Assembly: GCF_018977255.1 (NCBI RefSeq)
Contig: NW_024704742.1
Coordinates: 64,606,001 to 64,670,000, forward strand
Reading direction: 5' to 3'
Source of the DNA: Callorhinchus milii
Taxonomy: Eukaryota
DNA length: 64,000 nt
In this document: one piece after another, positions 55,101 through 58,100 of the stretch
Numbering within the stretch: position 1 is the stretch's first letter
Layout of the letters: the number at the start of each line of letters is the position of its first letter
Program-made: the position numbers and the translations under genes
Notes under the pieces: model-generated
Databases searched by the model: none
What the model saw: the letters and a program-made list of their open reading frames with translations, nothing else
Told to the model about the DNA's origin: nothing

Positions 55101-58100
55101 AAAGGTAGTTACTTAACCCGAGTAGCCGCTTAATCCAATTTTGGCTCCCATTTAAAGCATGACAGCAGGACTGACTACAAGGAAAGACTACAAGAGAAAT
55201 AATGTAGTTTCTGCAACACATTTTAGTACCCTTACAAAAATGCTCATTTCTAGGGATTGTTTATCAAATGCACAAGAATACTTTGCCTGTCACTTCAAGA
55301 AATATAAAATTTCAATCTTGCTGTACTTTATTTTACTACAAGCAGACTTTTGCACTCCTCAAAGATCTGTAAATATCTTTAGAACAAAGAAAACATCTGT
55401 TTCACAAAAACATTCACTGGATACTCTTTCCACTACAGAGTACAAGTATTCAGAGTTTTGCAGATTTAAACAAATTGGCCTCAATGAGAATCAGTCATTA
55501 AATTTTAAACCGCAGAAAAATGTTCCATCCAGAGAACAAAGATAGTTCAATCAAGCCTTAAAGAAAAATGAACATTACAACAGAATTTACTCGTAAACAG
55601 AATTATCCACATTATGACCTTTTCAATAAAAATGTTGAAGAGACTAAAAGGAAAACTCTGGAATCTAAACAGAATATTCTTTCCACTAAACTAAGTTTCC
55701 ACTAAGAGGAAGACTCCAAAATACCATTAATACCGTCAAAGCCAGTTAAATTTTCTAGAATACTCCCACAGATCATTCTATTCTCTAGAGCCTCTATACC
55801 AGTTGTATAGAAGATTTTATGTAACCGTAGACCTTACTGCAACTGAACATAATACTGCTGAATAATCACATTGGGTAGTTTTTCTAACTGGTTAACTATC
55901 CAACTGGGTTATCAACTGGAAAACCAATTTTCCCCAATCTAGATAGAGAATTAAGCAGTCTGACTGAAATGACAAATAGCATTGTAATCTTTTGCTAGGG
56001 CATCTGCTAATAGTCACTCTGCAAACAGAATAAATCACTTGTACAGCTGTATAAACAACAGATTTTAACATTAGTACAACCAAGCTTACACTCATCCTTC
56101 CTACTCAAGCATACCATGTTATTGGCTTCAATTTCAGCAGGCAGGAAAATGTTTCTCTTGACGATGTGAATTTTACAAAATTCTATTGGAAATATATATT
56201 ATGTATATATATAGAGAGAGAGAAATGTTAACAATAATAAAGGCAGCAAAGGTTAATAACCGGAATGTAGGACCGAGAAGTAGAATGTTAAAAAAAGAAA
56301 GGCTAAATGAAGTAGGACAGTTTGGACAGAGACAAACCAAAAAGAATAAGGAAGGTATAGATGCCTAAACACCATGAGGTTTAAGGAATGCGATATTGTC
56401 AAGCTCGCACTACTAATTTCTTTCCGTCTATTTTAGTGCATTTAAAGCATATTTTAAATATAAAAAATAATGTTCACATATTTTTGAAGCAGTCTGAGTT
56501 TCTGTAAATAGTACTATGGAACCCAATGCTAATTAAATCTTAATGCAGGAAATAATTCATAAAATTAGAGGAAACTTCTGCAATGTCTTCTATCTAACTT
56601 TCTCCAGAGATCTTGAATATTCGGGCAGGATATACATAAGATGCAGTTAATAGGCTCATTTTTCAACAATTGACATACACCAAGCTCCTCATCTCAATTG
56701 CTTCAATGTGCAATGTACCAACCAGGCACTTCTCAGAGAAGGAGGTAGAGAAAGACAAGTGGGGGAGGGGAGGGGTAGAAACCTTACCACATGCACTGAG
56801 GGGAGAGTTTCAGGCCTGCATTGAGACCTGGAAACAGCAGATTCTCGTGCTCTCTCTCTACCATGATGGGTATTTTCAGAGGAAAGAAAATAATTTGTTT
56901 GAAAATAGAAGAGTCTTATCCTTAACCGTTAAAATGTGCAAGTTATATTCTTAATAGTTCTACGTAAGGTGACAAAAAGGATGCTGTCTATTTAAGCCAT
57001 TTCAATGGGAGTGAGAGCTGCTGACCTTTTCACTGCTACTAGCTGAACTGGAGGAGAAAGTGGAAGTATCGGAGTCTGGGCCTTCCATGGGGGAGCTGGG
57101 AGAGATGTCAGGCCCCTCAGTAGATGACTGGGATCCCCCCTCAGCCCGCTGCACACTTACAAGTTCAGAGCTGTCTGACGGGGTCACAGCCGAATCAGGG
57201 CCCTCTGTGGTCTGGGAGCTCTCACTTAGCGGAGACGTTGTCTGATTGGTCTGGTCATTCAGATCTATAGTGGTATCTGACTGAATGGTGCTAATCTGGC
57301 TGGAGCTGCGGCTCAGAATGTCATCATCCTCCCCTTCGTTTGCAACATTGGTCAAGTCTGATGTCACCGTTGAACTATTCAGATCTACAGATTCTGCCGC
57401 CTGTAAAGTATGTTGGGAACGTGGTTGCTGGGTGATGATGTCGTGCCCTGCAGAATCCGGCAATGGGCTTGTAGAACCTATGGTGGAAATGCCTGAAGAT
57501 GATGGAATTTCAGCAGCTTCCTCGTTGTTCACTGAACCTAAACCAGGGTCAAATAAAAGAGCAATTCAACATATTTTCCATTACATTTCACACGTAGACA
57601 AATGTGTTGTACATAGGACTGGTTCTGTGTTTCAAATACAGTGTAAAATTTATAATTAATTTAGGGGGACATAATCCAAGTCTTTAAAATGCTAAGAGAA
57701 GGATGTAAATATGAAATTGTTGCTTGTAGTTTAACAACAGAAATACAAAAAAGCCTCTAACATGACCAAAAATTCCCTTAATTCCCACACACAATAATTT
57801 ATACTTCCCCAAATCTGAGCTGAAGTCAGGAGAGACGGAGAGAGCAAGAAAATTGACACAGAGGGTGCAATACAGAGATAGAGAGAAAATAGAAAACTAA
57901 TAAGGCCCAAAAGACAATGACAGAACAGGTTGCTATGCATCAGGGTCCTGGGTGCAGACTGCGGACAGGGGAGAAACTAGTAAGCGTGTTGGTCAATCTC
58001 TCAATGGACGTAGTTTGGCGGAGCCTTATAGTAGGTGCCTTTTATGTGTGGTTCAAGTCGATTAGAGATAGTTTTGTACTTCTGTTTAATTAAAATTAAA

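Follow-up and report, generated by a model that had tools for sequence, protein, structure and literature searches.

The window, a stretch of 64,000 nucleotides from Callorhinchus milii (contig NW_024704742.1, positions 64,606,001 to 64,670,000), carries HTT exons 10 to about 46 on its minus strand; the exon map was obtained by tblastn to named HTT proteins, of which those of the whale shark and catshark are closest over exon 12 (76-78%). Directly after the donor that ends exon 12 (donor 1) lies a segment, referred to here as 12L, that stays in frame with the exon and ends at a second GT donor (donor 2) in phase with exon 13; the intronic letters of donor 1 encode V-S, the opening residues of the extension (Table 1). 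The first-pass annotation had reported an open, GC-rich, in-frame stretch of 135 nt ending at AAG/GTCAGC in phase 0, and translation, base composition, and frame analysis all agree with it. The reading frame is open across 57160-57026, the remaining two frames contain stops, and the GC content of the extension is 0.57; the remainder of intron 12 is at 0.345, with 0.53 in its best 135-nt window, and the 135 nt that follow the extension are at 0.34.

Table 1. Features of the exon 12 to exon 13 region of HTT (positions in the window)
Feature	Position	Strand	Basis
Exon 12 of HTT in its constitutive short form (377 nt; starts in phase 1, ends in phase 0)	57161..57537	-	Matches to named HTT proteins (tblastn); contigs spliced at either end of the exon
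Constitutive TEGPD motif, exon 12	57194..57208	-	Translation; anchor present in nearly all HTT proteins compared
Donor 1, CTT/GTAAGT	57155..57163	-	Used in 3/3 runs having an exon 12-13 joint; 4.5 bits
Extension 12L, 135 nt, 45 aa, acidic, 42% Ser+Thr	57026..57160	-	Translation, alignment; covered by a run X1 contig continuous with exon 12
STEGPD, conserved core of the extension	57107..57124	-	TEGPD in 19/20 aligned inserts
Second copy, MEGPD	57074..57088	-	Alignment: retained by lungfish and tetrapods, changed in bichir and sterlet, missing from teleosts
Ser/Thr tract, mixed TCN and AGY codons	57032..57067	-	Codon count, alignment; length differs between species by whole codons
Donor 2, AAG/GTCAGC, phase 0	57020..57028	-	Best phase-0 GT; homologous donor used by gene models of other species
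7 further codons and TGA (57004-57002), read only with both donors unused	57002..57025	-	Translation
Read-through contig from X1 (604 nt at depth 25.7, without differences, no branch at donor 2)	56587..57190	-	Contig mapping
Tandem NAGNAG acceptor of exon 13, AAG CAG	55001..55006	-	Joints 57161-55003 (X1, X3) and 57161-55000 (X2)
HTT exon 13, opening VLDG (P3-P1' of the counterpart of the human D586 site)	54877..55000	-	tblastn map, contig joints

Donors were scored with a matrix built from the 34 HTT donors mapped in the window, with leave-one-out scores as the comparison; for exon 11, the donor used in training is not the one observed in RNA. Donor 1 scores 4.5 bits and exceeds 4 of these 34 scores; donor 2 scores 5.9 bits and exceeds 9 of them. 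Donor 2 ranks fifth among the 143 GT sites of exon 12 and intron 12, and first among those in phase 0. Donor 2 had been described as a good donor; it is in phase and within the range of the window's donors, but it is modest rather than strong. Competition between two modest donors is typical of an alternative 5' site. Exon 11 finishes in an 18-nt tandem duplication (58324-58361, minus strand) that yields two in-frame CAG/GT donors, with last bases at 58344 and 58326; the donor at 58326 is used in all four of the RNA runs described below, adding six residues.

Contigs of four probable RNA runs (X1-X4, from two studies; 4 of 12 matching runs) were mapped on 52900-58600. None of the 12 is recorded as RNA, and eight of them, from studies P1 and P2, are presumed to be; the spliced joints of X1-X4 show that these four contain spliced transcripts. 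The runs are available as contigs that have no tissue labels and a single mean depth each, and from which minor branches can be dropped; missing cover of the extension in X2, X3, and X4 was not counted as evidence. Exons 11 and 12 are joined in all four runs, and exons 12 and 13 in three, always from donor 1: the joint is 57161-55003 in X1 (depth 215) and X3 (131), and 57161-55000 in X2 (14.5). The use of the donor at 57025 in this species, framed by the first-pass annotation as junction 57026->55000 against 57161->55000, is not borne out by these contigs, which drop rare variants: a joint from donor 2 to exon 13 occurs in 0/4 runs. The short donor dominates in the runs seen.

The depth of the X1 exon-12 contig, 241, is the sum of 215 spliced and 25.7 read-through (about 11%). 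The read-through contig continues unbranched for 439 nt beyond donor 2, at 3.4-7.6 times the depth of the five other intronic contigs listed. It shows that the extension is transcribed together with exon 12, and it fits long-form splicing and read-through alike. If neither donor is used, the frame closes after 7 aa in the window, 4 in the database entry P0002, and 11 in P0156. P0002, from a 2071-nt contig with three differences from the lungfish model, is a molecule of the same type as the X1 read-through and contains spliced upstream exons, the extension, and four intron-encoded residues past donor 2, its end being either a stop or the end of the contig. Between 57025 and 55333, a search for AATAAA and ATTAAA found neither, and only variant hexamers lie near the read-through end.

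Several other observations were made on the same contigs and introns. X3 has a separate intronic contig (56537-56872, depth 7). To judge from loose ends at exon 11, X1 and X2 retain HTT exon 10 (59790-59743, minus strand, 48 nt), which contains the single N of the window at 59779, and X3 and X4 skip it; the run with the extension read-through, X1, is one that includes exon 10. Intron 13 holds a short interspersed repeat at 54620-54780, with a depth near 3000 in X1 and X3, and in exon 13 a single-base difference at 54935, found only in X1, is probably an allele. Broken reading frames occur in several introns (60335-61088, 42800-44000, 11831-12384, and 35300-36700), and these resemble fragments of LINE reverse transcriptase.

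Homologs of the extension were sought among database proteins. The first search returned 33 proteins, with a homologous segment in four (P0002 and sturgeon, bonefish, and catfish entries). A search with the sturgeon region returned 49, of which 45 carry an insert of 42-73 aa between the end of exon 12 and the start of exon 13; as this query favors insert carriers, 45/49 describes spread and not frequency. Two of the remaining four are without an insert, and the other two start an insert, but the exon-13 anchor was not located. The carriers comprise bichirs, sturgeons, many teleosts, lungfish, a frog, turtles, and birds, and all 45 inserts are in frame without a stop. The proposal that the extension is coding sequence is upheld by the gene models of other vertebrates, in which a homologous alternative 5' extension is found in frame. 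A short and a long model of the same species are both on record in RefSeq for zebrafish, two bichirs, lungfish, Carettochelys, paddlefish, Maylandia, Rhinichthys, and Trichomycterus. All the long forms found are predicted models, and the only cDNA record among the entries, AAH80340.1 from Xenopus, is a short form. No cartilaginous-fish protein carrying the insert was returned by the protein searches; the two named shark proteins are short forms.

In all 12 non-teleost species, the insert is 69-82% identical to that of the window, as against 57-68% for exon 12 (values resting on approximate slices) and 46-63% for exon 13. Teleost inserts are only 36-53% identical to the window's, and shuffled inserts give about 29%. 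In global alignments, no shuffle of 1000 reached the real score for chicken, turtle, lungfish, or sterlet, and 9 and 4 of 1000 did so for zebrafish and cichlid, respectively; the similarity of the catfish insert to the window's was not significant (168/1000). A chance open frame is rejected on the scores for chicken, turtle, lungfish, and sterlet (0/1000 each), and a repeat-derived exon likewise, as there is no self-match in the window and no tandem array at the segment. TEGPD occurs in 19 of the 20 aligned inserts, the catfish inserts being without it; all 20 are hydrophilic and end in K or Q, after which V follows. Teleosts retain Ser richness and TEGPD, whereas the rest of their insert has diverged. 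Percomorph inserts start without the donor-encoded V-S, which fits the cassette form given in the text of Gissi et al. (2006; PMC1636649). The identities, the retention of TEGPD, the K/Q ends, and the mixed Ser codons together argue that the segment is a conserved coding sequence, constrained as protein.

The extension of the window contains 16 Ser codons, 10 TCN and 6 AGY, and two EGPD copies; at least one EGPD arose in 222 of 100,000 shuffles. The insert thereby raises the TEGPD/EGPD count of the protein from one to two or three, and inserts contain between one and four S/T-x-x-D/E sites, a kinase consensus. Pfam returned no family either for the insert alone or for exon 12 with the insert. 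An internal duplication had been suggested as the source of the EGPD copies. The two extra motif copies are present, but DNA similarity between copies is not above chance: the best local match of exon 12 with the insert lies outside the motif region and is equaled by 86 of 2000 codon shuffles, and the local protein score is equaled by 987 of 5000. An old duplication, visible as a peptide motif only and not in the DNA, is plausible but unproven.

For mammals, the comparison covers the protein searches, rodent-cluster proteins, human HTT, and unspliced mammal-like frames. No mammal was among the insert-bearing matches of the searches returning 49 and 18 proteins, and all 12 rodent-cluster members having the anchor are short forms. 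In the alignment, the insert faces a gap in human HTT that lies exactly between I583 and V584, in agreement with its placement at the caspase site across exons 12 and 13. In four mammal-like unspliced frames, exon 12 matches named placental proteins at 95-100% identity; all four open with VSG-R like the start of the insert, and then continue without TEGPD and without the K-before-V end. Comparison of their tails with three inserts was not significant in 11 of 12 cases; the exception was P0159 against the window (p = 0.0005). We infer that the segment decayed in placental mammals.

The explanation that we favor, and hold to be fairly probable, is that 12L is an ancient alternative 5' splice-site extension of HTT exon 12 that dates back to the last common ancestor of jawed vertebrates and fell into decay in placentals; it is the C. 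milii copy that would date the segment to that ancestor. We regard 12L as real and ancient, and probably functional, and it is best read as a regulated, acidic, Ser-rich, disordered module that adds TEGPD copies. Two modest in-phase donors, 135 nt apart, would compete, and in some tissue or at some stage the spliceosome may choose donor 2. Full-length HTT would then be longer by 45 residues, acidic, rich in Ser, and disordered, within the unstructured N-HEAT loop, a region that is disordered in human HTT (PMC9536263), and the insert would add TEGPD/EGPD copies together with Ser/Thr sites in an acidic context. The most likely role of the insert, at about even odds in our judgment, is to switch the dose of a motif for binding or phosphorylation. 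Conservation from shark to bird above that of the neighboring exons points to TEGPD as such a motif. However, there is no known partner or kinase and no Pfam match for TEGPD, which counts against the motif explanation, and a vital role is further opposed by the catfish inserts without TEGPD and by mice homozygous for a deletion of residues 539-583, which includes the constitutive TEGPD copy, as these develop normally (PMC9536263).

The first-pass annotation had proposed that the extension exists to disable the caspase-6 site by replacing a hydrophobic P4 residue with Lys, so that splice choice tunes HTT proteolysis; the short isoform would read LVLD and the long one KVLD. The exchange itself is consistent across species: P4 is K, Q, or G in 62/62 long entries (52 K, 9 Q, and 1 G) and L, I, or M in 79/79 short ones, counts restricted to entries in which both anchors were located; isoforms make them redundant, and entries with a failed anchor, such as the two named shark proteins, are left out. 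The short side of the scheme overlooked the tandem acceptor of exon 13, however. Its upstream AG adds Gln and gives L-Q-VLD, i.e., QVLD, and it is the product of the short donor in two of the three informative runs (X1 and X3); the joint of X2 is at the downstream AG. Since a contig retains a single path, these runs show which form was kept and not the ratio of QVLD to LVLD. This is the only upstream NAGNAG among the 35 acceptors mapped in the window, and the Gln-added short form is absent from the 79 short entries of other species. At 53173 and 50451 (minus strand) are further acceptors with a second AG three bases downstream (CAG CAG and CAG AAG, respectively); at 53173 the upstream AG is the one used by the runs.

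The preferred sites of caspase-6 are VEID, VEMD, and IVLD (PMC9977399), and Gln at P4 (IVLD to QVLD) renders human HTT-delta12 resistant to the enzyme, which its authors credit to the hydrophilic P4 (PMC9536263); human QVLD is the one altered form with a published cleavage result. The long form with Lys at P4 is probably a poorer caspase-6 substrate where P1 is Asp, and C. milii has in the NAGNAG Gln a second route to the same end. Against this as the purpose of 12L stands the P1 residue. It is Glu in 15/15 long bird entries and in two turtle entries, i.e., in 17 of the 45 insert-bearing entries of the sturgeon-region search, and the insert of these birds and turtles is nevertheless 71-82% identical to the window's (birds 71-78%). 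P1 is also Glu in short bird and squamate entries, such that the residue matching D586 is Glu in all bird and squamate entries and in most turtles (P0009, P0020, P0022, P0024, P0025, and P0042-P0058). Caspases can cut after Glu at lower rates; our literature search on cleavage after Glu found nothing. In addition, a consensus AAG/GT or CAG/GT at a phase-0 donor gives K or Q anyway, the short donor already gives QVLD, a single-residue change does not need 45 conserved residues, and mammals, in which D586 cleavage is studied, seem to be without the segment. A caspase-6 switch as the reason for the extension is thus unlikely. The P4 change and the resistance of human QVLD leave room for an influence of splice choice on cutting, as a side effect: in species whose D586-equivalent site has the Asp, a Lys at P4 probably makes caspase-6 cut less. 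The protease effect is secondary, and more likely a side effect than the purpose.

A broader version would have jawed vertebrates ancestrally controlling the fate of the D586 loop by splicing at a single junction, through a second donor (KVLD), in C. milii also a tandem acceptor (QVLD), and a read-through fragment, with placentals having lost this control and fixed the cleavable IVLD. We consider this speculative and distinctly improbable; were it true, a 450-million-year-old second donor would add both a TEGPD/Ser module and KVLD, and read-through would directly encode an N-terminal fragment of the size of the caspase-6 product.

The read-through could also stand alone as the functional product, both donors being passed and translation stopping 7 codons on, within intron 12, to give a protein of about 570-590 aa made up of the N-terminal part of HTT and a Ser-rich tail. 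Such a protein would be a gene-encoded counterpart of the caspase-6 fragment. The X1 contig, unbranched to 56587 and deeper than other intronic contigs, P0002 with its spliced upstream exons and residues past donor 2, and the early closure of the frame in the window, P0002, and P0156 would all be expected. The conserved K before V, though, points to a conserved donor, and the sequence beyond it is not conserved. Read-through was seen in only one of four runs, neither canonical hexamer lies in 57025-55333, and the end of a contig is not the end of an RNA; X1 is explained equally if intron 12 is slow to be spliced out or if the joint of the long form was lost. We judge a truncated product to be a poor candidate. 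Conservation at the RNA level, as a splicing-control element or detained-intron signal beside a weak donor with the translated models being prediction carry-over, is very improbable: the segment does directly follow a weak donor, no spliced long form was seen in the C. milii runs, and alternative regions often bear extra nucleotide constraint, but lengths of 42-73 aa are all in frame without a stop in 45 entries, teleosts keep Ser richness and TEGPD amid divergence with Ser codon families mixed, and high coding potential was measured for the Xenopus-chicken tag by Gissi et al. (2006; PMC1636649).

The extension bears on the normal function of huntingtin and on the role of its protease-sensitive loop. 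Studies of HTT in zebrafish, frog, and chick that are based on the short cDNA overlook the long isoform. The single human TEGPD copy falls inside the stretch removed by an exon-12 antisense therapy candidate. Natural KVLD, QVLD, and xVLE versions of the D586 site are ready comparisons for the importance of cleavage.

Among known HTT variants, human HTT-delta12 likewise uses an alternative exon-12 donor, involves 135 nt and 45 aa, and alters P4 of the D586 site (PMC4444280, PMC9536263). Its donor lies upstream of the normal one and deletes residues 539-583, whereas in C. milii the donor lies downstream and adds sequence; an identity of the two events is rejected on these grounds, and their equal length of 135 nt is a coincidence. 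The NAGNAG form of C. milii reaches the QVLD of HTT-delta12 by adding a single residue. The disordered loop is also subject to skipping of HTT exon 10, a 48-nt cassette and likewise a conserved alternative event (Ruzo et al. 2015; PMC4444280), and both of its states occur in the C. milii runs. It is kept in mammals, and its inclusion is linked to neural tissue in Xenopus (PMC4444280). Lungfish models combine the exon 10 event with 12L.

The closest precedent is the work of Gissi et al. (2006; PMC1636649), which describes a coding conserved tag in HTT intron 12, with a competing 5' site predicted in Xenopus and chicken, a cassette exon ("12bis") in pufferfish, and a tag that is non-coding in rodents; a figure legend swaps two labels relative to the text. 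This exon 12L/12bis is of the same place and kind as the C. milii segment. The study was performed in silico on eight vertebrates, no cartilaginous fish among them, and it called the segment species-specific with low similarity and did not use the word caspase. By comparison, the C. milii copy would date the segment to the jawed-vertebrate ancestor, and outside teleosts the segment is more conserved than the flanking exons; identity to the window's insert is 71% in chicken and 76% in the Engystomops frog, compared without the sequences of Figure 5 of Gissi et al. Our search found no further literature on 12L or exon 12bis, although subscription papers, splicing databases, and supplements may mention the event. 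RefSeq and UniRef long models (XP_040526086.1 from chicken, XP_043918860.1 from lungfish, and XP_009291246.1 from zebrafish) have a homologous insert joined to exon 13 at the same junction; they are predicted and without function, and none from a cartilaginous fish was returned by the searches. The extension is, therefore, the event predicted in 2006 and already present in gene databases, to which C. milii adds an older member. The new elements are the copy in a cartilaginous fish, a conservation that exceeds that of the exons on either side, traces of decay at mammal-like loci, and a path to QVLD by way of the NAGNAG acceptor.
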